64,000 nucleotides of DNA, taken from the NCBI GenBank assembly GCA_001914535.1, contig MNCR01000141.1:10262-74261 (forward strand), given 5' to 3'. A program made the translations under genes and the position numbers. Of this stretch, positions 8,837 to 40,688 are shown in pieces; within the stretch, counting starts at the first letter, position 1; each line of letters opens with the position of its first letter. A model generated the notes under the pieces. The model worked only from the letters and a program-made list of their open reading frames with translations, made no database searches and had not been told where the DNA came from. This stretch comes from Candidatus Rokubacteria bacterium 13_2_20CM_69_15_1 (GTDB lineage Bacteria; Methylomirabilota; Methylomirabilia; Rokubacteriales; CSP1-6).

Positions 8837-8861
8837 GCCGCGTCGCGCCCGCGACCGGGGT

Positions 8862-26503: not shown

Positions 26504-28443
26504 GCGCCCTTCCGCCTCTCCGGCAGGATCGCGAGCAGCGCGCCCAGCGTCAGCACGAGCCCACCGATCCAGATCCAGCTGACGAGACGGTTCACGAGGA
26601 GCTTGACCGTCGCCTGCGAGCCGTCGCGGGCGAAGTCGCCGAGGACGAGGTAGATGTCCTCGTTGAGCCCGAGCCGGTAGTCCACGTAGGCGATCGGCGA
26701 CTGCTCTTGCGGATAGAACTTCTTCGCGGGCCGGAGCACGCCGAGCACGCGGCCGTTGGAGACCGTGAACGCGCCCGCGACCTTGAAATGGTTCGACTCC
26801 TCGGAGGCGGTGAGGTCCTCGAAGCGGACGCGGTAGCCGGCGAGCTCCGCGGACTCCCCGCGCCGGAGCGTCGTCTCGGTCTGTACCGACCAGGCCTGCG
26901 AACCGGTGACGCCGACCGCGATGATCAGGATGCCGAGATGGACGACGAAGCCGCCGTAACGCCGGTTGTGGCGGAGGAGGAGCCCGCGCATCGCCGGGAA
27001 GAGCCGCTCGCCCACCCGGAGGCGCGCGCGCGTGGCCCGCGCGAAGTCCACGGCGATCGTGGCGGCGACGAAGACGGTGAGCGCGAGCGTCAGCACCGCG
27101 ATGGCCGACCGCACGCCGAGCGCGAAGAAGCCCGCCGCGGCCACGACCCCCACCAGCACGGGCGCGAGGAAGTTCCGTCGGAGGTTATCGAGCGAGGCGC
27201 GCCGCCAGGCGATCAACGGCCCCACGCCCATGAGGAAGATGAGCGCGAGAAAGAGCGGCACGTTGACCTGGTTGAAGAATGGGGCGCCGACCGAGACCTT
27301 CACGCCCCGCGCGACCTCGGAGAGGAGCGGAAAGACCGTGCCGAAGAAGACGGTGAAGGTCACCGCGACGAGCAGCACGTTGTTGAGGAGGAAGGCGGAT
27401 TCGCGCGATACGATCGAGTCGAGCGCGCCCTGCGCGTGGAGCGCGTCCCAGCGCCACGCGAGGAGACCGAGGCCGGTGAGCAGCACGAGCGCGAGGAAGC
27501 TCAAGAAGAAGGCGCCGATCGCGCCCTGCGTGAAGGCGTGCACGGACGCGATCACTCCGGAGCGCGTCAGGAACGTGCCGAAGAGAGTCAGGCCGAAGGT
27601 CAGGATCACGAGGGAGAGGTTCCAGAGCTTGAGCATCCGCCGCCGCTCCTGGATCATCACCGAGTGCAGAAACGCGGTGGCCGTGAGCCACGGCATGAAG
27701 GCCGCGTTCTCCACGGGGTCCCACGCCCAGTAACCGCCCCACCCGAGAACGTGATAGCTCCACCAGCCGCCGATCAGGAGCCCGAGCGAAAGGAAGTACC
27801 AGGCGACGATCGTCCAGCGCCGCGTCAACGTGATCCACGCGTCGCCGACTCGCCCGGTGATCAGCGCCGCCAGCGCGAAGGCGAAGGGGACGGTGAGCCC
27901 GGTGAAGCCGAGATAGAGCGCGACGGGGTGCGTGATCATCCCCGTGTCCTCGAGCAGGGGGTTGAGCCCGCGGCCGTCGGCGGGCACCGGGCTCGACCGC
28001 GCGAACGGCGGCGCCGCCACCGTCATCACGAGCAGGAAGAACGCGAGCACGCCCAGCATGACGGTGAGGACCCACGGGTAGAACGCGCGCGCGCTCACGC
28101 GGTGCCGGAGGATGACGATCACCGTGTAGAGCGCGAGCATCCAGGCCCAGAGGATGATCGAGCCCTCGAGGGCTCCCCAGACCCCGGTGATCCGATAGTA
28201 GAACGGGGTTCCGAGGTTCGTGTTGGTCGCGACGTAGCGGACGGAGAAATCGAAGGTGAGGAAGGCGTACGTGAGCAGCGCGAAGCACGCCGTGACGAGG
28301 ACGAAGACCCCGACCGCCGCGTGCTGGGCGGAGAGCAGGAGCGCCGGCCGCCCGGTGCGTGCGCCGAGCGCGGCGGTCACGGCGCCCCACAGGGCGAGGG
28401 CCAGCGCGACGATGGCCGCGCCGTACCCGAGCTCGGGGATCAC
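26500..28443 (-). CDS. ccmF: Cytochrome c haem lyase CcmF
   Basis: VIPELGYGAAI start, a WGGYWAWDPVENA WWD-type motif and ~15 TM helices. GTGA overlaps on both sides. Confidence 0.93.
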   Translation of the reverse strand: MIPELGYGAAIVALALALWGAVTAALGARTGRPALLLSAQHAAVGVFVLVTACFALLTYAFLTFDFSVRYVATNTNLGTPFYYRITGVWGALEGSIILWAWMLALYTVIVILRHRVSARAFYPWVLTVMLGVLAFFLLVMTVAAPPFARSSPVPADGRGLNPLLEDTGMITHPVALYLGFTGLTVPFAFALAALITGRVGDAWITLTRRWTIVAWYFLSLGLLIGGWWSYHVLGWGGYWAWDPVENAAFMPWLTATAFLHSVMIQERRRMLKLWNLSLVILTFGLTLFGTFLTRSGVIASVHAFTQGAIGAFFLSFLALVLLTGLGLLAWRWDALHAQGALDSIVSRESAFLLNNVLLVAVTFTVFFGTVFPLLSEVARGVKVSVGAPFFNQVNVPLFLALIFLMGVGPLIAWRRASLDNLRRNFLAPVLVGVVAAAGFFALGVRSAIAVLTLALTVFVAATIAVDFARATRARLRVGERLFPAMRGLLLRHNRRYGGFVVHLGILIIAVGVTGSQAWSVQTETTLRRGESAELAGYRVRFEDLTASEESNHFKVAGAFTVSNGRVLGVLRPAKKFYPQEQSPIAYVDYRLGLNEDIYLVLGDFARDGSQATVKLLVNRLVSWIWIGGLVLTLGALLAILPERRKGA

Positions 28444-28874
28444 CGCCCCGCCCCCTGGAGCGTGCGGATAAGCTCGCGATACCCGGCGGCGCTCGCGTCG
28501 TGGGGCGCCTTGTACTCCTCGGAGTGCTTGGCCAGGATGAGCCCGGCCCTGAAGTAGCCGTCGGCGCTCCACGTGCCTTCGACGACGGCGCCGCGGCCCT
28601 CGCCGAAGAGGTCGGGCGGCGTCCCCTTGTGGTGGACCGCCACCGTCGCGGTGCCGTCACCGAGAGTGAAACGCAGGTCGAGGGTGCGCGGCTCCCACGT
28701 CAGCGACCCGGGCACGACCAGGCCGCCGAGGCGGTACGCCTTCCCGGCGACGGCGGACGCGCGGAGCTCGGCGGGGGTGACGAAGTAGACGGCGGACTGC
28801 GTGACGCCCGCGTAGATCATGTAGGCGAGGGCGGCGGCGATGACGATGCCGCCGACGATGAACTTGGGCCTCAT
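28440..28874 (-). CDS. ccmE: Haem chaperone CcmE
   Basis: Membrane anchor, OB fold and LAKHSEEY, the haem-binding His region. Confidence 0.92.
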   Translation of the reverse strand: MRPKFIVGGIVIAAALAYMIYAGVTQSAVYFVTPAELRASAVAGKAYRLGGLVVPGSLTWEPRTLDLRFTLGDGTATVAVHHKGTPPDLFGEGRGAVVEGTWSADGYFRAGLILAKHSEEYKAPHDASAAGYRELIRTLQGAGR

Positions 28875-28884
28875 GGCACCCGGG

Positions 28885-29055
28885 TCATCGTTGCGGGGTC
28901 GACGGTCGGGTCCGAAGCTCGGCGCGCGCGGCCCCGCGCCGGTGCTCGAGCGCCGCCAGCTCTCGCTCCCGCCGGTTGAGCCGCCGCCAGTAGCCGCCGA
29001 GGACGAGCGCCGCGAGCCCGTAGGCGGCGAAGACGAAGGACCAATTGTCGCGCAT
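28885..29055 (-). CDS. ccmD: Haem exporter protein CcmD
   Basis: 56 aa, with one TM helix (WSFVFAAYGLAALVLGGYW) followed by a basic tail. It occupies the canonical position between ccmC and ccmE. Confidence 0.65.
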   Translation of the reverse strand: MRDNWSFVFAAYGLAALVLGGYWRRLNRRERELAALEHRRGAARAELRTRPSTPQR

Positions 29056-29711
29056 CAGGCGAGGACCTCCTGCTCCCGCTTCAGGAGACGCACGCGCTTG
29101 GCGACGAAGTAGCCATAGAGGAGCGCGAACGCGGCCAGATTGATCGTCAGGGCGGCGACGAACGTCGCGTCCATCGGGATGCTGCCGGGCCGGAGCACGG
29201 TCGGCGGCTGGTGTAGCGTCCGCCACCAGTACACCGAAAAGTGAACGAGCGGGATGTCGAGCGCCGCGACGATGCCGAGCACGGCGGCGAAGCGAGCCGC
29301 CTGCTCGCGATCCTCGAGCATCGCCCGCAGCAGCAGATAGGCCAGATAGATGACGAACATGATCGAGACGCTCGTGAGCCGTGCGTCCCAGGTCCACCAC
29401 GTGCCCCACGTCGGCTTGCCCCAGATCGATCCGGTCGCGATGTTGATGGCGGTGAAGATGACCCCGACCTCCGCCGAGGCGTGCGCGAGCCGGTCCGCTC
29501 CCGCGGCGCGGCGCCAGAGATAGGTCGTGGAGGCCACCAGCACGACGCCGAACGCCAGATAGGCGACGAGGATGGCGGGGACGTGCAGGTACATGATGCG
29601 CTGGACGTTGCCCTGCGTCGCCTCGCGCGGCGCGATGCCGAACGCCACCACCAGCCCCGCAGCCAGGCCGATCGCCGCCAACCATCCGAGCGCGCGCTGG
29701 GGGTCCTTCAT
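29055..29711 (-). CDS. ccmC: Haem exporter protein CcmC
   Basis: WGKPTWGTWWTWDARLT WWD motif, 218 aa. Confidence 0.92.
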   Translation of the reverse strand: MKDPQRALGWLAAIGLAAGLVVAFGIAPREATQGNVQRIMYLHVPAILVAYLAFGVVLVASTTYLWRRAAGADRLAHASAEVGVIFTAINIATGSIWGKPTWGTWWTWDARLTSVSIMFVIYLAYLLLRAMLEDREQAARFAAVLGIVAALDIPLVHFSVYWWRTLHQPPTVLRPGSIPMDATFVAALTINLAAFALLYGYFVAKRVRLLKREQEVLA

Positions 29712-30385
29712 GCTTCCAGGATGGCGTCGAAGGTCAGGACGCCGACGGTGAGATAGATCGCGTCGGCGGCCGCGAGGAGCCCGAGCCAGTGGGCGACCGT
29801 GTCGAGCGGCTCACCGCGCAGCACGGCCTCCGTCGCCTTCACCGCGCCCAGGAGCACGGGCACCTGCACCGGAAGCAGGAGGACGGGGAAGAGCAGCTCG
29901 CGCGCTCGGACGTGCGCCGTCATCGCGGCGAAGAGTGTGCCGACCGCGGCGAAGCCGATCGTGCCCAACCCGATGACGGCGGTCAGGCGGATCAGATGGG
30001 TCGCCAGGTCGATGTTGAAAAAGACGGCGAAGAGGACGAGCAGGATCGCCTCGACGAGCACCATCAGCACCAGATTGCCGGCGACCTTGCCGAGATAGAT
30101 CGCCGACTTGTCGCCGGGCATCATCACCAGGCCCTCCCAGCAGTCGTTCTCGCGCTCGGCCAGGAACGCCCGGCCCAATCCGACGAGGCCGCTCAAGATG
30201 AACCCGAGCCAGAGCAGACCCGGCAGGGCCGCGGTGAGGCGCTCGCGGTCGGCGCCGAGGGCGAACTGGAAGAGGAAGAGGAGCAGCAGCGCGAAGAAGA
30301 AGAGCGCGTTCAGCGTCTCCTTGGAGCGCCGTTCGCTGAGGAAATCCTTCCACAGCACGATCCAGGCGCGGCGCGCATAGATCAC
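29708..30385 (-). CDS. ccmB: Haem exporter permease CcmB
   Basis: 225 aa, six TM helices. GTG start with GTGA overlap to ccmA, in the expected position. Confidence 0.88.
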   Translation of the reverse strand: MIYARRAWIVLWKDFLSERRSKETLNALFFFALLLLFLFQFALGADRERLTAALPGLLWLGFILSGLVGLGRAFLAERENDCWEGLVMMPGDKSAIYLGKVAGNLVLMVLVEAILLVLFAVFFNIDLATHLIRLTAVIGLGTIGFAAVGTLFAAMTAHVRARELLFPVLLLPVQVPVLLGAVKATEAVLRGEPLDTVAHWLGLLAAADAIYLTVGVLTFDAILEA

Positions 30386-31101
30386 GGCCCGTCCTCCGCG
30401 TGGAGCTCGTAGAGCCGCCGCACGTCGTCGGGCGTGAGCGCGCCCAGGGGCGTGTCGAGCGCGACGCGTCCGGCCGCCAGGACCGCCATCCGGTCGGCGA
30501 CGGGGAGCCCACGGCCGAAGCTGTGCGTGGTCATGAGGAGCGCGCCGCCGGCCGCCTTGAACGCGCCCAGGTGCCCGTCGAGCCACTTTCCCGCCCGCTG
30601 GTCGATGCCCGCGAAGGGCTCGTCGAGAAGCAGCACGGACGGGCGGGCGAGGACGAAGCGGGCAAGCGCGAGCCGGCGCTTCATGCCCAGGGAGAACGTC
30701 CGCACGCGCTCGTCGGCGACCCGGTCCAGCTCCACGGCCGCGAGCGCGCCGCCCAGCGCTTCTCGGCTCCGCGGCAGCCCGCCGAGCGTCGCCCAGAATC
30801 GCAGATTCTCGAACGGGGTGAGGTCTTCGTACACCCACGCCCCGTGCGCGAGCAGCCCCACGTGCGCGCGGACCTCGGCCGTCTCCCGAAGACAATCGTA
30901 GCCGGCCACCCGCGCCGTGCCGCGCGACGGCCGCAGGAGCGTCGCCAGAATCCGGAGCAGTGTGGTCTTGCCCGCGCCGTTGGCGCCGAGGAGGGCGACG
31001 GCCTCTCCCGGACGAACCTCAAGGCTCACGTCGTCGAGCACGACGTGGGCTCCGAACGCCTTGCGGAGGCCGATCACCTGAATGGGTGGATCTAGCGCCA
31101 T
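30382..31101 (-). CDS. ccmA: Haem exporter ATPase CcmA (ABC)
   Basis: Walker A GANGAGKTT, signature-like FSLGMKRR and Walker B LLLDEP. Confidence 0.9.
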   Translation of the reverse strand: MALDPPIQVIGLRKAFGAHVVLDDVSLEVRPGEAVALLGANGAGKTTLLRILATLLRPSRGTARVAGYDCLRETAEVRAHVGLLAHGAWVYEDLTPFENLRFWATLGGLPRSREALGGALAAVELDRVADERVRTFSLGMKRRLALARFVLARPSVLLLDEPFAGIDQRAGKWLDGHLGAFKAAGGALLMTTHSFGRGLPVADRMAVLAAGRVALDTPLGALTPDDVRRLYELHAEDGP

Positions 31102-31192: not shown

Positions 31193-32020
31193 TTAGCGCG
31201 CCGCATCGACGGTAAAGAATCGGTGGAGCAGAAGAATGACCGCCAGCATGTCGACCGCGCCGCCCCATCCCCACATCACGACCCCGCCGAGCGCCTGATC
31301 GTCCAGCGGACTGAGCCCCCCCGGCTCGGGCGACGCCGCGTATGAAGGATAGAGGATGCTCGGGCTCGCCGCGAGCAGGAGCCCGAGGGCCGCGCTCTGA
31401 AGCGCGCCCGTGACGAGATAGACGACGCGCAGGACGGGATGGGCGGATCTGGCGACATGGGGTGCGGGGTTGACGACGGGCCACCAGAAAAGGAGGGCAC
31501 CCGTGAAGAACGCGAGATGCTCGAGGTCGTGGAGGCGGCGATCGTCGAGCGCCGCTTCGTACGCCCACGGCAGATGCCAGAACCACAGGATCCCCGCGTA
31601 GCTGAGCCATGCGACGGGCATCCGCGTCAGGATCTGCCAGACGTACCGCACGGGCGCGCCGCGCACGAGGAGGCGGCCGGCCCGGACGCGGGCCCACGCC
31701 GGCAGGGCCCAGAAGAGCGCCGCCAACGGGTCGGCGAGGAGGAGGGCCGGCGCCGCGACGCTGACTAGCAGCATGTGCTGAACCATGTGGGCGGCGAAGC
31801 GGCGATGCGCGAGGGCGTCGAGACCGGAGAGGAGCGCCAGGGCGACGCTCCCGAGGCCGGCCAGGGTCAGGAGAGGTCGCCACCACGACACCCGTCGCCG
31901 GGCCCGTCGTGAGAGGCGCCACCAGCCGACGGCGTAGCCGCTCCCGACGAGCAGGAGCAGAGCCAGGATCGCCGGCCGGTGCGTCCCGATCAGCGGCGGA
32001 GGGCCAGGATCGTGACCCAC
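31193..32020 (-). CDS. ctaG: Cytochrome c oxidase assembly factor, Caa3_CtaG family
   Basis: Polytopic membrane protein with FAAHMVQHMLLVSVAAPALLLADP and WHLPW motifs. Start uncertain (GTG at 32020). Confidence 0.8.
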   Translation of the reverse strand: MGHDPGPPPLIGTHRPAILALLLLVGSGYAVGWWRLSRRARRRVSWWRPLLTLAGLGSVALALLSGLDALAHRRFAAHMVQHMLLVSVAAPALLLADPLAALFWALPAWARVRAGRLLVRGAPVRYVWQILTRMPVAWLSYAGILWFWHLPWAYEAALDDRRLHDLEHLAFFTGALLFWWPVVNPAPHVARSAHPVLRVVYLVTGALQSAALGLLLAASPSILYPSYAASPEPGGLSPLDDQALGGVVMWGWGGAVDMLAVILLLHRFFTVDAAR

Positions 32021-32201: not shown

Positions 32202-32396
32202 CTAGGGTCCCACCGCGAGGCCGGGCCCGAGCCCGCCCCAGTACTTGAACACATAGTAGATGCCCCAGACGGCAAGGAGAGCGTAGACCACGAGCAGCCA
32301 CTTGTTCACGATGCCGTGATACGCGCGGATCTCTCCGCGGGCGTATTCCTCGACTGCGCCGTACTTTGGGTGGGGCTCAGGAGTGCCTTCGCTCAT
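32202..32396 (-). CDS. Small single-TM protein in the cbb3 cluster (CcoQ-like position)
   Basis: 64 aa, TM segment WLLVVYALLAVWGIYYVF. ATGA overlap with the upstream ccoS-like ORF. Confidence 0.5.
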   Translation of the reverse strand: MSEGTPEPHPKYGAVEEYARGEIRAYHGIVNKWLLVVYALLAVWGIYYVFKYWGGLGPGLAVGP

Positions 32397-32695
32397 GAGC
32401 GCGGGGCTTCGTTGGTACCGGGGTCCGCGAGCCCGGGTCGCTCCGTGGGTGGCCTGCGAAAGGAGCGCTGGGCTTCGTTGGTAGCGGGGTCCGCGAGCCC
32501 GGCTCGGTCCGTGGGTGGCCTGCCAGAGGAGCGCGGGGCTTCGTTCGCCTCGTCCTCCGCGTGGAGCACCTGGTGCTTGATCGCCTCAATGTTTCGGAAC
32601 GCCCCGCTCGTCGCGCCCCAGATGAAGGCGCTGAGGGCGGCCCCGCCCATGAGCAGCGCCACGACGAACTCGCCCAGGGTCAGATGCTCGAGCAT
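32393..32695 (-). CDS. ccoS: CcoS/FixS-like cbb3 maturation protein with repeat-derived C-terminal tail
   Basis: The N-terminal 45 aa (LGEFVVALLMGGAALSAFIWGATSGAFRNIE) fit the CcoS pattern. The remaining ~55 aa are two 22-aa repeats encoded by the 66-bp tandem repeat. Confidence 0.6.
   Translation of the reverse strand: MLEHLTLGEFVVALLMGGAALSAFIWGATSGAFRNIEAIKHQVLHAEDEANEAPRSSGRPPTDRAGLADPATNEAQRSFRRPPTERPGLADPGTNEAPRS
32397..32555 (-). repeat. Tandem repeat, ~2.4 units of 66 bp (variant of repeat family A), in-frame inside the ccoS-like ORF
   Basis: GGGCTTCGTT recurs at 32404, 32470 and 32536. The reverse complement contains GGCCACCCAC and aligns with the first ~45 nt of the 86-bp unit core. 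Confidence 0.8.
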
Positions 32696-32708: not shown

Positions 32709-34364
32709 TTACTCCCGGATTCCGGGGTAGTAAACGCGCGGCCGGCGGCCGTTGGCCCGAGCCAGGCCGGCCGACTCGCGCTCGGGGTCGAGGGCCAGCC
32801 GCGGGTGGTCGGCGCGGACGTCGGGCGAGTTGAGCGACGCCTTGGCCTCGGGGGAGAGCTGGAGCTTCTGTCCGGTCAGCGGATCGGCCCACGCCGAGAA
32901 CGAGAGCACGAAGTACGAGATCGCCCAGCGCTCCGCCTCGTTCATCGAGTCGGCGAACGAGGGCATGGGCGTGCCGTCCAGCCCGAGCGTCATCGTACGG
33001 TAGATGTCGGTGACATCGGAGCCGCCCTTGAATTGCCCCTTCGTAAAGTCCGCGGGGCGGATCGGAAACTTGAGGTCGTCCTTGAGCTGATCGGCCGACG
33101 GTCCGTCGCCCCTGCCGGTATCGCCGTGGCACTCCCAGCACTTGGCCTTCACGTAGAGCTGCTTTCCGCGGGCGAGGAGCTCGGACGTGGCCGGCGGCGG
33201 CGTCGGGAGCACGACCGGCGGCTCCGGCTTCTCCTCCTTCCACCGTCGCGAGAAGGTCTTGATGTACGTGATGACCGCGAGCCGCGCTTTGTCAGGGACT
33301 TCATGCCACGTCGGCATCGCGGTCCAGCGGACGCCGCGCGTGACCGTGCGGAAGAGGTCGCCGTCGGTCGGCAGCGAGCCGGACGGCGTCGAGCGGAACT
33401 TGAACGCGCCGATCGTGAAGTCGCGCGGCCGCGGGGAGAGGAAGGTGGCGGCGAGGCCGTTGCCGTCGCCCTTCGCCCCGTGGCAGCCGATGCAGTGCTC
33501 CCCATATTCCTCTTTGCCACGGGCGACGAGGTCGGCGGATTGTGGAATCCTCATCACGGAGAACGCCACGTTCTGCGGCTCGAAGACCTCCCGCCACGCC
33601 CCGCGATTCGTGCCGAGCTTCTGCACATACCTGACGAGTCCGACGAGCTCCTTCGTCGGAACCACCAGGAGGACGGACGTGAGGGCGGGCGGCTTGTCGC
33701 CGAAGGGCGTCAGGTCGAGGACCGGCGTGCCGTCGATCGGGAGCTCGCCGTCGGGCCGCGGGCGCACGAACACCAGGCCCGTCTCGTTGGGGAAGAGCAG
33801 CACCGGCTTGTCCTTGTTCATCGTGAAGTATTGCGAGACGGCTGGCGTCGCGTCGAGCTCGAGCCCCCCAGCGCCCGTGCGCACGGGGACCCGGGTCTGC
33901 TCGAAGAGCCACTTGAAGCTGGGCATGATCGACTCGGGCACCACCAGTCGCGGATCCCAATGGTGGGCGTAGTGCCAGTCGTCGGCGTACTTGAGCCCCA
34001 CGCGCGTCAGGTCCGGTCCGATGCGTCGGGTGGAGAAGAGATGGGGGAGGTCGAAGGCGTACTCGCCGGCCTCGGAGACCGGCCCCCACCTGAGCTCCTC
34101 GCCGGCGACCGGCCGCACGTACTGGCTGTGGCAGTACCAGCACCCCTCGCGGATATACACGGCGCGCCCGAGCTTCTCGAGTGGCGTGTAATCGCTCGAC
34201 TCGTACCGCACCCACTTGATTTCCCCGAGGTCCGTTCGCACCGCGCGGCTGACTCGCTTCGTGCGGGACTCGGGCAGGATGGCGGGGAGAAAGCCCTGAA
34301 CGAAGATCGCCAGCGTCACGAAGCCGAATCCCGCCCCGATCGCGAGGGACTTGATCGATCTCAT
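32709..34364 (-). CDS. ccoO: cbb3-type oxidase subunit II (CcoO) fused to a dihaem CcoP-like cytochrome c domain
   Basis: N-terminal TM helix plus REGCWYCHSQYVRP (CcoO signature). Two further CXXCH motifs (CIGCH, CWECH) lie in the C-terminal ~300 aa. Confidence 0.88.
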   Translation of the reverse strand: MRSIKSLAIGAGFGFVTLAIFVQGFLPAILPESRTKRVSRAVRTDLGEIKWVRYESSDYTPLEKLGRAVYIREGCWYCHSQYVRPVAGEELRWGPVSEAGEYAFDLPHLFSTRRIGPDLTRVGLKYADDWHYAHHWDPRLVVPESIMPSFKWLFEQTRVPVRTGAGGLELDATPAVSQYFTMNKDKPVLLFPNETGLVFVRPRPDGELPIDGTPVLDLTPFGDKPPALTSVLLVVPTKELVGLVRYVQKLGTNRGAWREVFEPQNVAFSVMRIPQSADLVARGKEEYGEHCIGCHGAKGDGNGLAATFLSPRPRDFTIGAFKFRSTPSGSLPTDGDLFRTVTRGVRWTAMPTWHEVPDKARLAVITYIKTFSRRWKEEKPEPPVVLPTPPPATSELLARGKQLYVKAKCWECHGDTGRGDGPSADQLKDDLKFPIRPADFTKGQFKGGSDVTDIYRTMTLGLDGTPMPSFADSMNEAERWAISYFVLSFSAWADPLTGQKLQLSPEAKASLNSPDVRADHPRLALDPERESAGLARANGRRPRVYYPGIRE

Positions 34365-34380: not shown

Positions 34381-35772
34381 TCACGCCGACCGCCGGGCGA
34401 GGGAGCCCTTCAGCAGGGTGTAGACCACGAGTGACATGCCGATGTCCATCGAGATCCCGGTGAACGTTCGCACCCACCAGTACGGGCGGATCGCGGTGAC
34501 CGTCTCCAGGAACTCACTCTGCGCCATGAGCATGTAGCCCTGCTGCAGCCCCTGCGCGCTGAGGACGAGCCCCATCGCCCCAATGCCGAGCGTGACGAGC
34601 CAGAATCCCCAGTTGGCGAGCGTGAAGCTCCAAAGCTCCGAGCCCGTGATCCGTGGCCAGACATAGATGGCGCCGGCGATCGCCCACACGACGAAAGTGC
34701 CGAAGACGGTCAGGTGCGAGTGGGAGATCACGAAGTCCGTGAAGTGAGTCGGCTGCTGGAGCGCGCGGAGCGCCTCGAGCGAGCCCTGAAAGCACCCGAC
34801 GAGGTACATGATGGAGCCCACGATCAGAAACTTGGCGGGGAGGTTCCGGCCGAACTCCTGCCACCGGCCGATCATGGTGCCGAAGAAGTTCTGGAGCACC
34901 GTCCACACCGGAATGATCAGCATCATAGAGGAGACGATGGCGATCGTCTCGGCCCAGTCGGCGATCGGAGAGTAGAGGTAATGGTGAATCCCGACGAACG
35001 GATAGAAGAATGCGAGGGACCAGAACCCGATCAGCGACAGCTTGTGGCTGTAGATCGGGTTCCGAACGCTGGCGGGGAGAAAATAATAGATGAGGACATA
35101 GCCCGCCGGCGTGATCCACAGCCCCACCACATAGTGGATGAACAGGCCGTGCCATGCCGCGTTGTTGATCCCGGGGATGTGGTACGGACCGAGCATCAGA
35201 AGGATGAGGTTCACGTCCGTCCAGACGAAGGCCGCGATGAGATACCAGAGCGAGACGTAGAGCGGGGCCTCCCGGCGGTTCTTGATCGTGATCAGGAACT
35301 GCGCGGTCAGGAAGAGGAGCGCCAGGAAGATGACGATGACATTGACGAGGGCGAACTCTCCCGCTTCCCAGCCGCGGTTCCAGCCACCCGCGAGGAGGAG
35401 GACCGCGACGGCCAGGTTCACGTTCCAGACCCAGATCAGCCAGTGGCTCCAGCGCTCGTTCCACAGCCTCACCCCGCAGAGGCGCGGCACGATGTAGTGG
35501 CAGAGACCGATGAAGAGGGTCGAAAACGCACCCCAGATCACGCCGTTGACGTGGATCGGACGGATCCGGCCGAAGGTGAGCCAGGGGTGACTGCCGAGAA
35601 ACTCCGGGTATGTGAACTTGGTGGACAGAATGACGCCCACGGTCGGAAAGAGAAGCAGCCAGAGGAACCCCGAGGCGAGCCACTTCCGGGTCAACTCCCG
35701 GTCGACGACGTCGTCGTTCAGGCGCCGTGCGTTCGCGATCCGCGCCTCCTCGGCCGGTCCGGTGCCGCCCAT
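34381..35772 (-). CDS. ccoN: cbb3-type cytochrome c oxidase subunit I
   Basis: 463 aa, 12 TM helices. Shows RPIHVNGVIWGAF and the His ligand pattern of C-family haem-copper oxidases. Confidence 0.93.
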   Translation of the reverse strand: MGGTGPAEEARIANARRLNDDVVDRELTRKWLASGFLWLLLFPTVGVILSTKFTYPEFLGSHPWLTFGRIRPIHVNGVIWGAFSTLFIGLCHYIVPRLCGVRLWNERWSHWLIWVWNVNLAVAVLLLAGGWNRGWEAGEFALVNVIVIFLALLFLTAQFLITIKNRREAPLYVSLWYLIAAFVWTDVNLILLMLGPYHIPGINNAAWHGLFIHYVVGLWITPAGYVLIYYFLPASVRNPIYSHKLSLIGFWSLAFFYPFVGIHHYLYSPIADWAETIAIVSSMMLIIPVWTVLQNFFGTMIGRWQEFGRNLPAKFLIVGSIMYLVGCFQGSLEALRALQQPTHFTDFVISHSHLTVFGTFVVWAIAGAIYVWPRITGSELWSFTLANWGFWLVTLGIGAMGLVLSAQGLQQGYMLMAQSEFLETVTAIRPYWWVRTFTGISMDIGMSLVVYTLLKGSLARRSA

Positions 35773-35818: not shown

Positions 35819-36685
35819 TCACGAGAAGCGGATCGGATGCGCGGCCTCGAATCGCTGCCCGCGGTTGTTCGTGAGGACGACCCGCACAAGGCCCTCGCTG
35901 TGGGCGCGGAGCCTGAACGCGATGAAGGGGTTATCGCTGAGCGCCGAGGTCAGCGTGAACTGGCTGATGGGCTCGTCTCCGTAGAAGACGTTCATCGCCG
36001 TGAGGTAGAGGGGCTCCCCGGCCTGGACGAACGTTCCCTCTCGAACCTCCAGGCCCGTTCGGCTCGGGTGCTTGGTCTTCACCTGGACGTCGATGGTCTC
36101 GTCGGGACCGATGCGACCATCCGCGATCAGCTGCGGGATCCGGATCGCCGGGGGACCGATCTCGTCGGGGCCGCTGCGGCCGGACGGCGGTGCGGTCCCG
36201 GCGCAGCCACCCGCGCCCTCGGGGATCGTGATCGACTGCGTGGTGTGCCAGCGGGCGTGGCGACTGCACTCGGCCGTCGCCGCGACCTCGGAGGCGCCAT
36301 GGTCCAGCCGGATCTGGAAGGCGATGTAGACCTGACCGTTCAGCGGCCCGAAGTTGAATATGCCCTTCAGGGGGACGGGGTCGCGCTCGTTCACGACGCT
36401 GATACGCGTGATGTAGTGACCCGGCTCCATCGGGTGGGACATCTCGACGGCGACCGGGACCTTGGCTCCGTTGCTGGTGAAGCTCGGCAACTTGAGTCTC
36501 GGCGAGTGGAGGCCTTCGGACGGCGGGAGCGCACCGGGACCGGCGCCGTGCACTGGCACGGGTTCGGAGCGGACGAAGACGCGACGAATTTCCCCCGCCG
36601 CGACCAGCCCCACGGCCGCCGGCACGACGCCCAGGAAGCTGCGTCTGGATAGCCGCCGCGGCCGTGAGGCGGGTTGCGGGCTCAT
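35819..36685 (-). CDS. Fused SoxY-SoxZ sulfur-carrier-like protein, Tat-exported
   Basis: SRRSFLG twin-arginine signal. SoxY-like region P-FTSNGAKVPVAVEMSHPMEPGHYITRISVV..NFGPLNGQVYIAFQIRL ending in GGCAG (36197-36211). SoxZ-like region IRIPQLIADGRIGPDETIDVQVKTKHPSRTG...SDNPFIAFRLR follows. Confidence 0.85.
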   Translation of the reverse strand: MSPQPASRPRRLSRRSFLGVVPAAVGLVAAGEIRRVFVRSEPVPVHGAGPGALPPSEGLHSPRLKLPSFTSNGAKVPVAVEMSHPMEPGHYITRISVVNERDPVPLKGIFNFGPLNGQVYIAFQIRLDHGASEVAATAECSRHARWHTTQSITIPEGAGGCAGTAPPSGRSGPDEIGPPAIRIPQLIADGRIGPDETIDVQVKTKHPSRTGLEVREGTFVQAGEPLYLTAMNVFYGDEPISQFTLTSALSDNPFIAFRLRAHSEGLVRVVLTNNRGQRFEAAHPIRFS

Positions 36686-36704
36686 TGCCGACCCGAACTC
36701 CGTC

Positions 36705-37166
36705 CTAGTGGCGGCCCGGATCGAGCTTGGACCCTCGGTTCGACCAGTAGATGTAGGTCTCCAGCGCCTTCATGGCGTCCCCGTCGGGATCGATCTTCAC
36801 CCCTTCGTTCGGCTTCTCGATGCACCAGTTGATCATGTCCCGAAGCGTCGCGAACTTGTTGATCTGCTCCTGGAACTTGGGGAACTCGTGGGGATGGTTG
36901 TCTGATCCGAAGGGATGGCACATGGCGCAGGCCATTCCGGTCTTGGAAAGCGTGACACGGAGCCTCTTCTCGGTGGCGCCATCCCCGTGGAAGAGGAGAT
37001 CACCGATCTTGACCTGCTCCATGAACTCTTCGTCGAACGCCTTGAGCTGGTCTGGCGTGTGCTTCTCCTTGTGGGCCAACGCCCGGTCCGTTCCCGGGCT
37101 GGCGAGCATGACCAGCAGGCCGAGGAAGACACCCAGCGCCGTCAGCACGTATCGAGTTCTCTTCAT
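36705..37166 (-). CDS. Periplasmic monohaem c-type cytochrome
   Basis: Signal/anchor helix and a single CAMCH motif. The distal segment LRDMINWCIEKPNEG...MKALETYIYW reminds me of SoxA/TsdA-type cytochromes, from memory only. Confidence 0.8.
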   Translation of the reverse strand: MKRTRYVLTALGVFLGLLVMLASPGTDRALAHKEKHTPDQLKAFDEEFMEQVKIGDLLFHGDGATEKRLRVTLSKTGMACAMCHPFGSDNHPHEFPKFQEQINKFATLRDMINWCIEKPNEGVKIDPDGDAMKALETYIYWSNRGSKLDPGRH

Positions 37167-37204
37167 CGCCCTCCTCCCTCCGCGGGTGTGAGCTCCGCCG
37201 GTCA

Positions 37205-38422
37205 TCACTTGTAGGCGCCGTAGTACGGCCACTCGCGATCGGCGATGCGTGGGCTCAAGACCTGGTTCACGTTGTCCGCGCACCCGGAGTCCCAGAGGGC
37301 CTCGCCGACGATGTCTTTCCGCCACATCACATACTCGTTCTGGATCTTCTCGGCCGACATGGTGAGCCTGGACCATCCCACGCCGTCGAAGTGGTCGCCC
37401 GGATCCACCCGCACCAGGCATCGGGTCAGCGTGGGCACGCCTTCCGGCGCGTACGGCCACGTCCACGAAGTCGCGAGCATGCCGATCGAGCGCATCTTCC
37501 CGACCTCGTTGTAGAGCACCTGATGGGTGTGCCCGTGGACGTTCGTGACGTTCGTGTAGGGCTTGAGGACCTCGTGAACCTCCCGCCAGTCGCGTACCCA
37601 GAAGTTCCAGGGCGGATAGTACTCGTAGAGGGGGTTGTGGCTGAAGATCACGACGGGATTGCCCTTGGGCCAGTTGGAAAGCGTGCGATTGAGCCACTCG
37701 AGCTGATCGCGGCCCACGCCGGCCCACGCGCCGGCCACGGAGCCGTCCAGCGTCGCCATGTGGCCCATCCGCTCCTTGGGCGTCATCTTTTTGGCGGTCC
37801 AGTAATCGGGACCGCGGCTGACCGTGTCGAGCCCCACGAACCGCACGCCCTTGTGGTCGAACGTCCAGTTTGGCGGGCCGAAGAGCTGCTGCCACTTGGC
37901 ACCCATGTCCAGGTACCAGTCGTGCTCACCTGGGATGAAGACTTTCCGGATCTTCACCTCCTTGAGGATGTCGTTGCCGAGGTCGAGCTCGACGGGATCG
38001 CCGAGCTGCGCGAGGTCCCCCCCGTGAATCAGGAAATCCGCCGGGGGCGACATGGCCTGCACCTCCTTGACGGCGCGCGTGGCCTTCTCGACGAAGCGCG
38101 TGTTGACGTTCTTGGGATAGAGGTGGTTGTCCGAGACCCACGCGAACTTGAAGGTCTCGGCGCCGAACGCGAGGTCTAGGGTGTTGACGAGAGGGAACCA
38201 CCCGTACGTCGCCGCGCCGGCGGCCGCGCCTGCCAACAGCGATTTGTGGAGGAAGATGCGGCGCGTGATCGCGAGTGAGGGGTCGGGGCGCTCGCCCGGT
38301 TTCCTCAACTCTGCGTCCATCTCGCGCCGCGTTCGCTGGATCTCGGAGCACGAGCGGGCCTTCCGCCACCAGGCCCGCCGGGCCTTGTCTCTCGCGAGGT
38401 CGAGTCGATCGTGATCGTCCAC
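37205..38422 (-). CDS. Tat-exported calcineurin-like metallophosphoesterase
   Basis: TRRIFLHKSLLAGAAAGAA Tat motif. MPE motifs WVSDNHL, HGGDL, PGEHDW, FSHNP and HGHTH. GTG start preceded by AAGGAGG. Confidence 0.85.
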   Translation of the reverse strand: MDDHDRLDLARDKARRAWWRKARSCSEIQRTRREMDAELRKPGERPDPSLAITRRIFLHKSLLAGAAAGAATYGWFPLVNTLDLAFGAETFKFAWVSDNHLYPKNVNTRFVEKATRAVKEVQAMSPPADFLIHGGDLAQLGDPVELDLGNDILKEVKIRKVFIPGEHDWYLDMGAKWQQLFGPPNWTFDHKGVRFVGLDTVSRGPDYWTAKKMTPKERMGHMATLDGSVAGAWAGVGRDQLEWLNRTLSNWPKGNPVVIFSHNPLYEYYPPWNFWVRDWREVHEVLKPYTNVTNVHGHTHQVLYNEVGKMRSIGMLATSWTWPYAPEGVPTLTRCLVRVDPGDHFDGVGWSRLTMSAEKIQNEYVMWRKDIVGEALWDSGCADNVNQVLSPRIADREWPYYGAYK

Positions 38423-38480
38423 TGCGGTCGCCTCCTTTCCCGCTGACGAACCGTCGTGCCAGACAGAGCCGCCTGACGCG

Positions 38481-39206
38481 TTACTTCTTCAGCTCGACCG
38501 TAACGGGCACCACCTCCTTCGCCTTCACGGTCACGGGGATCTCGGCCTCCCCGGTGTACTCCTGCCACGCGACGAGCGTGTAGGAACCCGGCGGAACGTC
38601 TTTGATCGTGAACGTGCCGTCCTTCGCGGTCAGCGCATAGTAGGGGGTGTCCGCGACGTACACCCAGCCGAGCATCCAGCCATGCGCGTCGCACTCCACG
38701 CGGACGATGCCTGGCTTCTTCAGCTGCCGCTTGATGCGCTGACCCTGGTTCGGCAGCGCCACGTTGAACGCGGTGAGCTTCCCGTAGAACCCGTGCGTGT
38801 TGTGCAGGACCGGGTCCGAGTTCACGATCTCGAAGTCGCCCGCCGAGATGACCTGCACGTGCGGCTTGAAATCGCATTTGACGTTATCGATGTGCGGGGT
38901 GGCCGCCGGCTTTTCCCAGGCCTTGCCCTTCCCGATGCCCGTGAGGTAGACCACCGCCTCTTGGACCGCGTTGTCCGGGCCGAGCAGGATCTGATCCACC
39001 TCGCGCACGCCGCTGCCGCACGTCTCTCGATCCTTGGTGGGGATGACCTTTCGCTTGGCCGGCGGGCTTCCCTGGAAGAGCACCTTGCCCTTGATGGTTC
39101 CGCCGTCGCTCACCGTGGCGATCTCGTAGGGCTCTCCGAAGAAGGGCACGCCCGCCACCATGACGGCGACCGCGAGCACCGCCGGCGCCAGTCGGGAAAG
39201 CTTCAT
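38481..39206 (-). CDS. Secreted cupredoxin-like (type-1 Cu ligand pattern) protein with C-terminal Ig/CarboxypepD_reg-like domain
   Basis: Signal peptide. H...C-x2-H-x2-M arrangement (VLHNTH ... VECDAHGWM) as in amicyanin-type sites. C-terminal TAKDGTFTIKDVPPGSYTLVAW beta-sandwich. ATG at 39206 has an AAGGAG RBS. Confidence 0.7.
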   Translation of the reverse strand: MKLSRLAPAVLAVAVMVAGVPFFGEPYEIATVSDGGTIKGKVLFQGSPPAKRKVIPTKDRETCGSGVREVDQILLGPDNAVQEAVVYLTGIGKGKAWEKPAATPHIDNVKCDFKPHVQVISAGDFEIVNSDPVLHNTHGFYGKLTAFNVALPNQGQRIKRQLKKPGIVRVECDAHGWMLGWVYVADTPYYALTAKDGTFTIKDVPPGSYTLVAWQEYTGEAEIPVTVKAKEVVPVTVELKK

Positions 39207-39237
39207 CACCCTCTGCTCCTTTCCCACGCGTCGCCGA

Positions 39238-40062
39238 TCAGAGATGGGCCGACGGACGCGGCAAGGGCTCGAGCTTCTCGTCCGGCGCGTGGCACATCAG
39301 GCAGGCGCGGTCCCCGATCTCCGAGACGATCGTATAGCCGGCGCCCTGGGACCGCCAGATCACCACGTCGTAGCCGCGGTGACTGACCACCTTGAAGCGA
39401 GGCTTGTCCTTCAAACGAAGCTTGCGGTAGGCATCTTCCGGGATGATGAAGAGCGACACGTTGTTCCCGTCCACTTCATATTCGAGGGCCGCCACTTCGA
39501 CCTCCCTCAGGTGAGAGATCCGGCCCCCGAGGAAGCGCAGGCGCTCGGTCTTCAGATCCGGCAGATTCACGTTGAACGCGAGCCGCTTCTTGAACCACTC
39601 CTCGGCCGCCTTCGGCGGCACGTCTTTGATATCGGGCGGCAGGAGGTCTCGGACGAGCTTCTGGTGCTGCTCCACCGCGGCGTCGGCCAGCTCGGCCAGC
39701 GTGGTTCGGGTTCCGAGGTGCGACTGGAGCGCCATGCCCGCGCCGAGGCCGACGACGATCAGCAGTGCGGCCCCCACGCCGCCGACAACGGACCGCGTGA
39801 ACCGGCGCTGCCGGCGAGCCCCGCGCCGCCCCTGGCCGAGCTCACCGAGCAAGGCGGTCACCCGCTCGCGGACCGGCTCCGGGGCTGGGTCCGGTCGCAA
39901 CCGGTCCACGTAGGCCTCCCGGAAGGCGACTTCGAGGTCGAGGAGCCGGCGGCACGCGCCACAGCGCGCCACGTGCGCCTCGATCTCACCCCGAGCCTCC
40001 GGGGTGAGCTCTCCGTCGACGTAGGGGAACAGCTTGGATTTCGCCGTGCTACAGTCCATCAT
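39238..40062 (-). CDS. Transmembrane anti-sigma factor (zf-HC2) with C-terminal CXXCH
   Basis: HVARCGACRRL H-x3-C-x2-C motif and one TM helix (VVGGVGAALLIVVGLGAGMAL). The ~165-aa outer domain ends with CLMCH (39289-39303). It overlaps the sigma gene stop. Confidence 0.8.
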   Translation of the reverse strand: MMDCSTAKSKLFPYVDGELTPEARGEIEAHVARCGACRRLLDLEVAFREAYVDRLRPDPAPEPVRERVTALLGELGQGRRGARRQRRFTRSVVGGVGAALLIVVGLGAGMALQSHLGTRTTLAELADAAVEQHQKLVRDLLPPDIKDVPPKAAEEWFKKRLAFNVNLPDLKTERLRFLGGRISHLREVEVAALEYEVDGNNVSLFIIPEDAYRKLRLKDKPRFKVVSHRGYDVVIWRSQGAGYTIVSEIGDRACLMCHAPDEKLEPLPRPSAHL

Positions 40063-40648
40063 TCCGCACGCCGATCCCCTTCTCGCCGGGCCGCTCCCGG
40101 GGCTCGACCAGATAGGTCCGGAGCAGGTTCCTGCCACGATAGAGTCGCGACATCACGGTGCCCACCGGGCGGCTGACGATCGTCGCGATCTCTCGATAGG
40201 AGAGGCCCTCGATGTCGCGGAGCTCGACGATTTCCCTGAGCAGAGGGGGCAGATGGCGGATCGCTTCCCGGACCTGTTCGACCGTCTCGCGACGAAGAAG
40301 GATGTCCTCGGGCGCGAGCGGGATGGAGCAGAGGGGATTATCCAGCGACGCCACCGGTTCGGCTTCCTTCTCATGTTCGAGTGGCTGTTCCGGGGCCTGC
40401 AGCCGCCGTCGCCGTAGCCGATCGATCTGGACGTTTCTCATGATCGTGAAGATCCACGGCCTGAAGCTCTGCGACCGGTCGAACGCCGGGAAGCCCCCGT
40501 ACGCACGCGCCAGACTCTCCTGGAGGAGGTCCTCAGCATCCCGCCGCGCCAGGACGTGGGCGTAGTTGTAGAGGGAATCGAGGTACTGGTGGACCAAATC
40601 CTGGAACTCGGACCTACTATCCACAGATCTCCCCGCGCGCGGGTCCAC
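40049..40648 (-). CDS. ECF (group IV) RNA polymerase sigma factor
   Basis: Region 2 (AEDLLQESLARAYGGFPAFDRSQSFRPWIFTIMRN) and region 4 (LPPLLREIVELRDIEGLSYREIATIV). Start codon uncertain (GTG at 40648). Confidence 0.92.
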   Translation of the reverse strand: MDPRAGRSVDSRSEFQDLVHQYLDSLYNYAHVLARRDAEDLLQESLARAYGGFPAFDRSQSFRPWIFTIMRNVQIDRLRRRRLQAPEQPLEHEKEAEPVASLDNPLCSIPLAPEDILLRRETVEQVREAIRHLPPLLREIVELRDIEGLSYREIATIVSRPVGTVMSRLYRGRNLLRTYLVEPRERPGEKGIGVRNDGL

Positions 40649-40663
40649 GCACCTACTTAGTAC

Positions 40664-40688
40664 TACGTCCTCGGGCGCCGCTTATTCC
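40664..40688 (-). promoter_or_regulatory. ECF-type promoter candidate GGAAT-N16-CGTA upstream of the sigma gene
   Basis: The minus strand reads GGAATAAGCGGCGCCCGAGGACGTA, ending 15 nt before the GTG. This resembles autoregulated ECF promoters. Confidence 0.35.

Follow-up and report, generated by a model that had tools for sequence, protein, structure and literature searches.

The Sox system of sulfur oxidation (SoxAX, SoxYZ and SoxB, truncated when SoxCD is absent) is one of several described systems to which the locus studied here can be compared. This locus lies in a 64,000-nucleotide stretch of DNA (positions 10,262 to 74,261 of contig MNCR01000141.1; hereafter the window) from Candidatus Rokubacteria bacterium 13_2_20CM_69_15_1. 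It comprises six minus-strand genes, for an extracytoplasmic function (ECF) sigma factor, an anti-sigma factor, a cupredoxin-like protein, a metallophosphoesterase (MPE) exported by the twin-arginine translocation (Tat) pathway, a small c-type cytochrome and a Tat-exported fusion of SoxY with SoxZ, followed by the genes of a cbb3-type oxidase (Table 1). We tentatively consider, with a little less than even confidence, that this locus is a single ECF-sigma-driven operon, coding for a periplasmic electron-input module and for the terminal oxidase fed by that module. As in the Sox system, the module is periplasmic and Tat-exported, has the SoxY and SoxZ folds with a Gly-Gly-Cys arm, a Cys-bearing haem domain of the SoxA family and a dinuclear-metal hydrolase of the MPE superfamily, and its electrons would reach a cytochrome c-type oxidase. 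It differs from the Sox system in that SoxY and SoxZ are fused, that the arm Cys is internal (GAGGCAG, and not a C-terminal GGCGG) and that SoxY carries a His4Cys set absent from canonical SoxY. Moreover, its cytochrome is a single domain of 15 kDa, devoid of SoxX and of the invariant Arg, a cupredoxin belongs to the set, and the hydrolase is a 37 kDa MPE of the GpdQ/purple acid phosphatase (PAP) type with a GEHD motif, different from SoxB and its 5'-nucleotidase C-terminal domain.

Other systems share part of this equipment. The rus operon of Acidithiobacillus ferrooxidans groups a periplasmic or outer substrate oxidiser, a cupredoxin shuttle and a terminal oxidase, a private path from a lithotrophic donor to O2; it differs from the present module in its Fe(II) donor, its different proteins, its aa3 oxidase and the absence of any carrier protein or hydrolase. 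A thiosulfate pathway combining TsdA and SoxB was described in Erythrobacter flavus (PMC7608252), and a Cys S-thiosulfonate intermediate was shown for TsdA (PMC4423706). This combination also associates a Cys-ligated haem of the SoxA family with an MPE-superfamily hydrolase, and the TsdA intermediate provides a template for a carrier-independent cycle. By contrast with the window cytochrome, TsdA is a dihaem protein, and the Arg and Ser of its active site find no conserved counterpart there; furthermore, TsdA and SoxB do not form an obligate gene pair in Erythrobacter, where the hydrolase is a true SoxB. Centre II of superoxide reductase (SOR) and neelaredoxin, including a predicted 'TAT-SOR' class (PMC3116461), aligns residue for residue with the SoxY domain of the fusion through the motifs ..H.P.., HPM..xH and C-N/S-x-H-G/A-x-W, and the Tat signal is common to both. 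The window protein nevertheless differs from SOR by its fold match and arm, which are those of SoxY, by its fusion to SoxZ, and by a context of sulfur and respiratory genes instead of rubredoxin or oxidative-stress genes. Finally, the quinoprotein-dehydrogenase-associated carriers (TIGR04557) also hold SoxY-like and SoxZ-like halves in one polypeptide. The window fusion lies outside this family; the first-pass annotation of this DNA, made from the letters alone, had named membership of it, with a PQQ enzyme nearby, as a result that would refute its hypothesis. The score of the fusion (93.1 bits) is below the cut-off of 140, and no pyrroloquinoline quinone (PQQ) dehydrogenase was found in the more than 25 neighbourhoods examined.

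Gene order was clearly conserved across lineages. A pattern scan, limited to one genome per species, yielded 23 loci with relatives of the fusion, and the window proteins were then searched by tblastn. The order cupredoxin-like protein, MPE, cytochrome and SoxYZ was kept, wherever the contig extends far enough, in Rokubacteria, Methylomirabilota, Myxococcales, Anaeromyxobacteraceae, Candidatus Acidoferrum and Binatia. At least 20 independent loci, belonging to six lineages or more and set between unrelated flanks, have this same order, an arrangement which is far beyond chance. CcoN and CcoOP directly follow this four-gene core in 16 loci, and the pair of sigma and anti-sigma genes precedes it in about 11; the sigma gene is conserved upstream of the module in Rokubacteria, Methylomirabilota and Acidoferrum loci. 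Loci fetched by means of the MPE and not of SoxYZ (L024-L026 and L115) display the same eight-gene cassette between unrelated flanks, which indicates that the cassette behaves as a discrete unit. Across phyla, identity amounts to 72-93% for the MPE, about as conserved as CcoN, to 62-93% for the cytochrome, to 56-82% for the cupredoxin-like protein and to only 46-77% for the SoxYZ fusion. The recurrence of MPE, cytochrome and cupredoxin with SoxYZ fusions, anticipated in the first-pass annotation, is therefore found in gene order across phyla.

The link with a terminal oxidase, which that annotation had likewise proposed, is also conserved. The partner encoded after the four-gene core is in each case a terminal reductase, acting on O2 or H2O2: mostly cbb3, aa3 in Myxococcales, and a dihaem peroxidase in one locus. 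In all cbb3-linked loci, CcoN is followed by a CcoO/CcoP fusion, and a CtaG-like gene lies downstream in most of them. Three loci (L024, L026 and L115) have a gene of 55-57 amino acids at the position of a FixS/CcoS-like gene, followed by small genes of 30-71 amino acids. In two Myxococcales loci, a rhodanese with a signal peptide directly follows the fusion, then SCO1 and subunits of an aa3-type oxidase. In locus L116 (6229-10752), the place of cbb3 after the four-gene core is taken by a genuine dihaem cytochrome c peroxidase of the bacterial type (226 bits to 1iqc), and this core is divergent from the adjacent haem A/O synthase genes CtaA and CtaB. The Binatia locus L019 (5482-9785) has a 287-amino-acid multihaem cytochrome with five CXXCH motifs between SoxYZ and the oxidase; in the same locus, CcoN, CcoO and CcoP read as one open reading frame (ORF) of 1029 amino acids. 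Comparison with L017 revealed a clean deletion in the Rokubacteria metagenome-assembled genome (MAG) that carries L018 (9700-10000): the sigma, anti-sigma, cupredoxin and MPE genes and the 5' part of the cytochrome gene are missing. What is left of the cytochrome gene, its last 30 or so codons, abuts sequence whose counterpart in L017 precedes the sigma gene. In L017 itself (7668-9485), the frames of the cupredoxin-like protein and of the MPE run into one long ORF, which is either a real fusion or a MAG frameshift.

The carrier protein combines features of two families. Pfam SoxY and SoxZ both exceed their cut-offs in the fusion, in line with the AlphaFold2 model built from 56 sequences, which reached a mean predicted local distance difference test (pLDDT) score of 81.6 overall and more than 90 over both domains. 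When this model was compared by Foldseek with the Paracoccus proteins, template modelling (TM) scores were 0.82-0.90 for SoxZ and 0.72-0.76 for SoxY; the Foldseek output was dominated by generic matches to pairs of immunoglobulin-like domains, and the SoxY and SoxZ rows alone are informative. The arm Cys of GAGGC, C161, is present in 56 sequences out of 56. The model of true SoxY ending in GGCGG, TIGR04488, gave 42.5 bits, below its cut-off of 125, and indeed no NCBIfam Sox model reaches its cut-off on the proteins of the module. Yet Pfam Desulfoferrodox, PF01880, matches the fusion with 33.5 bits, above the cut-off of 22.2, while the NCBIfam SOR domain model TIGR00332 remains below its own (20 bits against 61.9). 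Profile and single-sequence alignments alike match H60, H84, H90, C140 and H143 to the five iron ligands of centre II in the solved SORs 2amu and 1y07, within the SOR-type motifs ..H.P.., HPMxxxH and CxxHxxW. Among 56 family members, these residues are present in 50 (H60), 56 (H84), 52 (H90), 56 (C140) and 53 (H143). By contrast, all five are absent from the canonical SoxY proteins solved for Thermus and Paracoccus. The fusion is thus a SoxY-fold carrier which keeps a complete SOR-type ligand set, and its SoxY domain is predicted to bind a metal.

This ligand set raises the question of a defence against reactive oxygen species in the periplasm, in which the SoxY-like domain would be a Tat-exported superoxide reductase with an Fe(His)4Cys site, fed by the cytochrome or the cupredoxin, and controlled by a redox-sensing anti-sigma factor of the ZAS type. 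A SOR would then be grouped with an O2-reducing enzyme (cbb3) or an H2O2-reducing one (cytochrome c peroxidase), the latter in L116, where the dihaem peroxidase directly follows the fusion. The retention of the five centre-II ligands, the PF01880 score, the existence of a bioinformatic 'TAT-SOR' class (PMC3116461) and the resemblance between the zf-HC2 domain of the anti-sigma factor and RsrA are in line with such a function. We nevertheless consider it improbable. Such a defence leaves the two best conserved proteins, the MPE and the His/Cys cytochrome, without any part to play, together with the invariant Cys of GGC and the SoxZ domain; TIGR00332 is not satisfied and the overall fold match is SoxY; and stand-alone relatives bearing the same ligands occur in sulfur-oxidation clusters, together with SoxB-like hydrolases and DsrEFH.

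These relatives were indeed informative. The two most distant matches of the fusion scan are stand-alone SoxY-like proteins which end in GGC, carry the same SOR-type motifs and have separate SoxZ-like partners; the closest stand-alone relatives share 39-44% identity with the SoxY half. A homologue search started from the gammaproteobacterial stand-alone SoxY, followed by three contig look-ups (loci L023, L112, L113 and L114), revealed a conserved gammaproteobacterial cassette coding for Sulf_transp (YeeE/TsuA-like), a beta-propeller protein, the SoxY relative, a SoxB-like hydrolase, SoxZ, a cytochrome c, DUF302, SCO1 and a DsbH-like thioredoxin. The SoxB-like hydrolase scores 404 bits with TIGR04486, below the cut-off of 550. 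The cassette is flanked by TusA and by DsrE, DsrE and DsrH in one locus and by TusA in another, and it appears to be uncharacterised. A SoxY with SOR motifs is thus found again in the company of a hydrolase of the MPE superfamily, a c-type cytochrome and a copper-related protein, in the context of sulfur oxidisers, and this context constitutes the strongest argument that the window fusion handles sulfur. Altogether, four independent links strengthen the connection with sulfur: the rhodanese that follows SoxYZ in the two Myxococcales loci, a rhodanese beside a distant MPE (see below), the SoxB-like cassette, and TusA/DsrEFH beside this cassette.

The small cytochrome is not of a generic type. 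This single-domain, monohaem protein matches the Pfam SoxA/TsdA domain PF21342 above the cut-off, and the NCBIfam SoxA model TIGR04484 weakly (30.1 bits, below the cut-off of 110). HMMER aligned it to the haem-1 domain of SoxA from Rhodovulum and Paracoccus and placed C115 on the haem-ligating Cys; by register, C115 corresponds to Cys96 of TsdA. The CxxCH motif and the Cys of RDMIxWC are invariant in 22 orthologues and kept in four distant clades. Ligation of the haem by C115 is accordingly a prediction drawn from aligned positions. The absence of Sox partners from the window, put forward in the first-pass annotation, holds insofar as tblastn found no SoxB-like protein, rhodanese or SoxYZ paralogue there, and a domain search found no SoxX-like gene in the operon. 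By contrast, the cytochrome itself has the SoxA/TsdA fold together with the ligand Cys, so that the description 'without canonical Sox enzymes' was overstated. It should also be noted that, in four of five clades, the last residues of the cytochrome are a conserved Gly-(Lys/Arg/Thr/Ala)-His (window 36705-36720) and that, in the type-A clade to which this remark is confined, the mature N-terminus is a conserved AHKxKHT (window 37060-37080). The C-terminal His or AHKxKHT could serve as an extra metal or haem ligand, or as a contact with the MPE.

The MPE displays the Metallophos domain (PF00149) above its cut-off, with the DxH, GD, H and GHxH motifs intact. Its third motif is GEHD in all type-A members, and GEHD or, in one clade, GDHD in the distant clades. 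To our knowledge, the Asn of the GNH(D/E) metal-ligand motif is almost universal in the metallophosphoesterase superfamily; an Asn metal ligand is therefore replaced by a carboxylate in every member of the present family. This family is narrow, with 84 representatives (50% clustering) at E<=1e-30 among 1.8 billion proteins, many of them fragments. The search with the MPE alone nevertheless gave over 2,500 homologues, of which the best 120 are all at least 79% identical; metagenomes from soil and from the subsurface are rich in the cassette. No relative of known structure was found in the PDB by sequence (best match 15 bits). The AlphaFold2 model, built from 46 near-identical sequences, is weak (pLDDT 55.7); Foldseek places it nearest to GpdQ, Rv0805 and PAP and not to enzymes of the 5'-nucleotidase/SoxB type, a ranking used here only to say that the MPE is not SoxB-like. 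A SoxB orthologue was rejected for the same protein, with no match to SoxB (TIGR04486) or 5_nucleotid_C and an E value of 1.8 in BLASTP against a SoxB-like protein. The MPE thus differs from SoxB both by sequence and by model, as first proposed.

An ordinary periplasmic phosphodiesterase or phosphatase for phosphorus scavenging, with neighbours unrelated in function, would agree with the automatic annotation as Icc/CpdA and with GpdQ and Rv0805 as nearest folds. This fits the data poorly and is hardly credible: the MPE adjoins a SoxA-like cytochrome in more than 85 loci, its conservation is extreme, its metal-ligand motif is altered, and no phosphate-regulon genes lie nearby. The association with the cytochrome extends to distant relatives of the MPE (35-46% identity), which were examined through cluster and contig look-ups. 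These gave a Thiotrichales-like locus with MPE and SoxA-like cytochrome, a second locus with the same MPE beside a rhodanese, a gammaproteobacterial Tat-MPE with a cytochrome among housekeeping genes, and two loci (L029 and L031) combining a dihaem protein of the CCP_MauG family with MPE and cytochrome; the pair was found in four of five distant contexts. A metagenome scan based on a five-sequence alignment of distant MPEs then yielded 80 loci (L032-L111), all of the P0244-like sister clade. The trio found in this clade consists of an MbnH/MauG-like dihaem protein, an MPE with GEHD and a SoxA-like cytochrome with an N-terminal extension of about 90 amino acids. The dihaem gene lies upstream in 60 of 61 assessable loci and the cytochrome gene downstream of the MPE gene in 64 of 64. 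The dihaem protein scores about equally with the MbnH and MauG models, and its resemblance to solved MbnH extends from end to end. These loci often include a divergent LysR gene. Within 6 kb, no SoxYZ, cupredoxin, rhodanese or oxidase, and no sulfur-specific gene, was found in the sister-clade loci. MPE and cytochrome are thus obligately paired and occur more widely than the SoxYZ fusion does, and the two proteins may form a physical complex.

Such a distribution leaves room for a different substrate. The pair could be a two-subunit periplasmic oxidoreductase acting on a non-sulfur compound, e.g., a metal ion or a phosphate-like oxyanion at the dimetal site, possibly with a redox-active dimetal centre or a protein-derived cofactor, and SoxYZ, cupredoxin and oxidase would then be lineage-specific accessories for electron transfer or thiol redox. 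The MbnH/MauG family is known for the oxidative maturation of partner proteins. The universality of the pair in the sister clade and in four of five distant contexts, the company there of a dihaem enzyme of this family without sulfur genes, and an MPE as conserved as CcoN are in line with such a view. So is the carboxylate of GEHD/GDHD, which in our estimation would favour a higher-valent, redox-active metal, and the absence of the catalytic Arg of SoxA and TsdA (PMC4423706). However, no neighbouring gene indicates a candidate substrate, all neighbours that tell of a substrate speak for sulfur (SoxY/Z, rhodanese twice, the SoxB-like cassette of SoxY relatives), and the only detectable family of the cytochrome is SoxA/TsdA. 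A non-sulfur substrate seems unlikely to us, albeit the strongest of the alternatives considered here.

The path of the electrons toward the oxidase may involve the cupredoxin-like protein. Its cupredoxin-like region is inserted into a CarboxypepD_reg/prealbumin-like domain, and residues 135-197 weakly match the solved cupredoxins 5u7n, 5fc9 and 2ux6, with no match to a Pfam cupredoxin family. Across 18 orthologues there is no variation at H142, C179, H182 and M185, which show C-x2-H-x2-M, or at C70 and C118. Amicyanin has the same C-x2-H-x2-M spacing. The protein is presumed to be a membrane-anchored type-1 copper electron carrier. On the oxidase side, the alignment of CcoN with solved cbb3 CcoN chains covers the whole protein and brings the helix-VII Tyr, the HH pair, and the CuB and haem His residues into register. 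With the NCBIfam ccoN equivalog CcoN scores 200, below the cut-off of 583, and is thus a divergent member of the C family (cbb3). A haem-copper enzyme of the nitric oxide reductase (NOR) type was rejected, as the Tyr and His residues of CcoN align with those of cbb3, according to the published criterion that separates O2 reductases from NOR-type enzymes (PMC11214002). It can be added that the C-terminal dihaem half of CcoO/P (32709-33600) matches Leptospirillum 'cytochrome 579' below the threshold, with 54 bits where 280 are required.

The proximity of an oxidase could also mean that the four proteins are copper or haem biogenesis or metal-delivery accessories of the adjacent haem-copper oxidase. 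Haem-copper oxidase genes do adjoin in most lineages, with CtaG-like, SCO1 or CtaA/CtaB genes nearby, and two of the proteins have metal sites made of Cys, His and Met. Several observations make such a role very improbable. Pairs of MPE and cytochrome occur far from any oxidase, a soluble peroxidase takes the place of the oxidase in L116, and L018 keeps its oxidase after the loss of the module. Moreover, C-x2-H-x2-M is a blue-copper motif of electron transfer and not of chaperones, and no known assembly factor has an MPE or a SoxA fold.

From a regulatory point of view, the sigma factor and its partner show the features of an ECF sigma factor and a ZAS-type anti-sigma factor, i.e., sigma regions 2 and 4, an adjacent zf-HC2 anti-sigma and an autoregulatory promoter motif. 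The sigma ORF opens at GTG 40648, and GTG 40624, which follows the Shine-Dalgarno sequence GGGGAG, is the likelier start. About 14 orthologous loci, spread over several phyla, carry GGAATAA-N16-CGTAGTA at an equivalent position ahead of the sigma gene. The window as a whole has a single copy of this motif, where chance would give 0.04; judged by its sequence, it is a typical autoregulated ECF promoter. Gating of expression by the sigma/anti-sigma pair, as initially proposed, gains from this conserved promoter. The anti-sigma factor is made up of a cytoplasmic zf-HC2 domain, one transmembrane helix and a predicted periplasmic domain that ends in CXXCH (CLMCH; gene part 39238-39400). This CXXCH is invariant in 16 of 16 aligned sequences, i.e., the window protein and 15 orthologues, including the distant Binatia copy, which suggests a covalently bound c-type haem as the sensor. 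We know of no described anti-sigma factor with such a covalently bound c-type haem sensor.

From a mechanistic point of view, the locus may be a compact Sox-like oxidation module whose electrons pass via the cupredoxin to the oxidase, on a substrate deduced from context; this is our preferred reading, quite possible without being probable. Its catalytic core would consist of the Tat-exported dinuclear MPE, with its GEHD motif, and of the monohaem cytochrome with the SoxA/TsdA fold. At the His/Cys haem, a cysteine thiolate would receive a reduced sulfur species (thiosulfate, sulfite or sulfane/persulfide) by oxidative coupling, in the manner of SoxA and TsdA. Two electrons would leave the haem for the cupredoxin, then CcoO/P, CcoN and O2, a direction of flow which we infer. 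The MPE would hydrolyse the terminal sulfonate and release sulfate, the part played by SoxB in the textbook pathway, and the residual sulfane sulfur would be carried on Cys161 of SoxYZ or, in some lineages, taken over by a periplasmic rhodanese. Upon a redox or ligand signal in the periplasm, the anti-sigma factor, probably through a covalent periplasmic haem, would free the sigma factor, and the freed sigma factor would drive the whole operon from the GGAATAA-N16-CGTAGTA promoter. The TsdA intermediate and the TsdA/SoxB route provide a chemical precedent for the proposed cycle.

Several observations weigh against this Sox-like reading. The arm Cys is internal (...EGAGGCAGT..., then a Pro-rich linker), tethered at both ends, different from the free C-terminal GGCGG of SoxY, and the strictly conserved SOR ligand set of the SoxY domain is left without explanation. 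The best alignment of the cytochrome is with the haem-1 domain of SoxA, which is not catalytic. In SoxA and TsdA, the residue at position -4 relative to the ligand Cys is an invariant Arg (Arg119 of TsdA), which binds thiosulfate (PMC4423706); this position is Met111 in the window cytochrome, which has instead an Arg six residues before the Cys, not universal among relatives. With Met in place of the catalytic Arg, membership of the catalytic SoxA/TsdA family is not established. The MPE lacks specific similarity to SoxB as well as the 5'-nucleotidase C-terminal domain, and L018 keeps SoxYZ and cbb3 after losing everything from sigma to the 5' part of the cytochrome gene. Finally, the sister clade without sulfur genes weakens the case, as the chemistry of the pair need not involve sulfur. 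The carrier-cysteine sulfur pathway advanced in the first-pass annotation is thus partly supported: the rhodaneses and the SoxB-like, Sulf_transp, TusA and DsrEFH genes around SoxY relatives speak for it, and that sister clade speaks against it. This hypothesis had missed the SoxA-like cytochrome, the core formed by MPE and cytochrome, and the SOR-type site.

A bolder reading of the locus may also be considered. The MPE and the Cys-haem cytochrome would then form an unrecognised class of two-subunit periplasmic oxidoreductase, e.g., a molybdenum-free sulfite or thiosulfate dehydrogenase in which the haem-ligating Cys is the covalent carrier and the GEHD hydrolase resolves the adduct. The SOR-type iron site of SoxY would help to oxidise the bound sulfur, in the place of SoxCD, and the operon would be switched by the first known c-haem anti-sigma factor. 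Taken as a whole, this elaboration is doubtful.

The features of the locus are collected in Table 1. The G+C content of the window is about 70%, and its closest relatives are Candidatus Rokubacteria/Rokuibacteriota MAGs. All six minus-strand ORFs (35819-40648) were found again with their domain calls, as given in the first-pass annotation, and the cbb3 genes (CcoN, then the CcoO/CcoP fusion) directly follow the SoxY-SoxZ fusion. They belong to a single minus-strand gene run (31-41 kb), with a high third-position G+C content, as in real genes, and no terminator-like site was found on the minus strand between 32 and 41 kb. Regarding the intergenic gaps, which had been put at 19-58 nucleotides, the upper value stands and the lower does not: the gaps range from 10 to 58 nucleotides, the sigma and anti-sigma genes overlap slightly, and the gap ahead of the MPE gene is 160 nucleotides if translation starts at ATG 38320. 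Directly downstream of the oxidase and CtaG-like genes, on the minus strand (25967-31101), lies a System I cytochrome c maturation set (CcmA-like ABC ATPase, CcmC, CcmE, CcmF and CcmG-like thioredoxin). Together with the oxidase and the module, it makes up 15 kb (26-41 kb) given over to c-type cytochrome function.

Table 1. Features of the operon, its promoter and the oxidase genes that follow it, in window coordinates.
Feature	Position	Strand	Supporting evidence
ECF-type promoter GGAATAA-N16-CGTA(GTA), predicted	40664..40688	-	Upstream of sigma gene; motif common to about 14 orthologous loci
ECF sigma factor	40049..40648	-	Sigma70_r2, Sigma70_r4_2; NCBIfam sigma70-ECF 96.9 bits (cut-off 42.9)
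Anti-sigma factor, membrane-spanning	39238..40065	-	zf-HC2 39.7 bits; one transmembrane helix
Cupredoxin-like protein, signal-anchored, 248 amino acids	38481..39227	-	CarboxypepD_reg 33 bits
Tat-exported MPE	37205..38320 (or 38422)	-	Metallophos PF00149 44.6 bits (cut-off 21.5); Tat motif TRRIFL
Monohaem c-type cytochrome, CAMCH, 153 amino acids	36705..37166	-	PF21342 34.6 bits (cut-off 27)
Tat-exported SoxY-SoxZ fusion	35819..36685	-	SoxY 72.8 bits, SoxZ 50.4 bits; Tat motif SRRSFL
CcoN	34381..35772	-	COX1 242.9 bits
CcoO fused to dihaem CcoP-like domain	32709..34364	-	FixO 159 bits and two Cytochrome_CBB3/Cytochrom_C domains
FixS/CcoS-like small membrane protein	32393..32695	-	Weak FixS match; real gene probably about 55 codons
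Caa3_CtaG-like oxidase assembly factor	31193..32020	-	PF09678 193 bits

No paper on the cassette, on the pair of MPE and cytochrome, on a metallophosphoesterase combined with SoxA/TsdA, or on a SoxY with SOR ligands was found in the literature searched; what comes nearest is the 'TAT-SOR' class, defined by bioinformatics alone (PMC3116461). It is a real possibility that the pair of MPE and haem protein constitutes a new enzyme class. The cassette is found in phyla that are poorly studied or without cultured representatives. If the proposed sulfur oxidation is true, it would represent a solution to Sox chemistry independent of SoxB and SoxX, and surveys that count soxB, soxAX and soxCD would miss the whole route, since no protein of the cassette passes those models. 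Rokubacteria and their relatives would then have a private chain leading from the donor to O2. Whatever the substrate, the MPE/His-Cys-haem pair, the GEHD site, the SoxY with SOR ligands and the anti-sigma factor with CXXCH raise questions for bioinorganic chemistry and for signalling.

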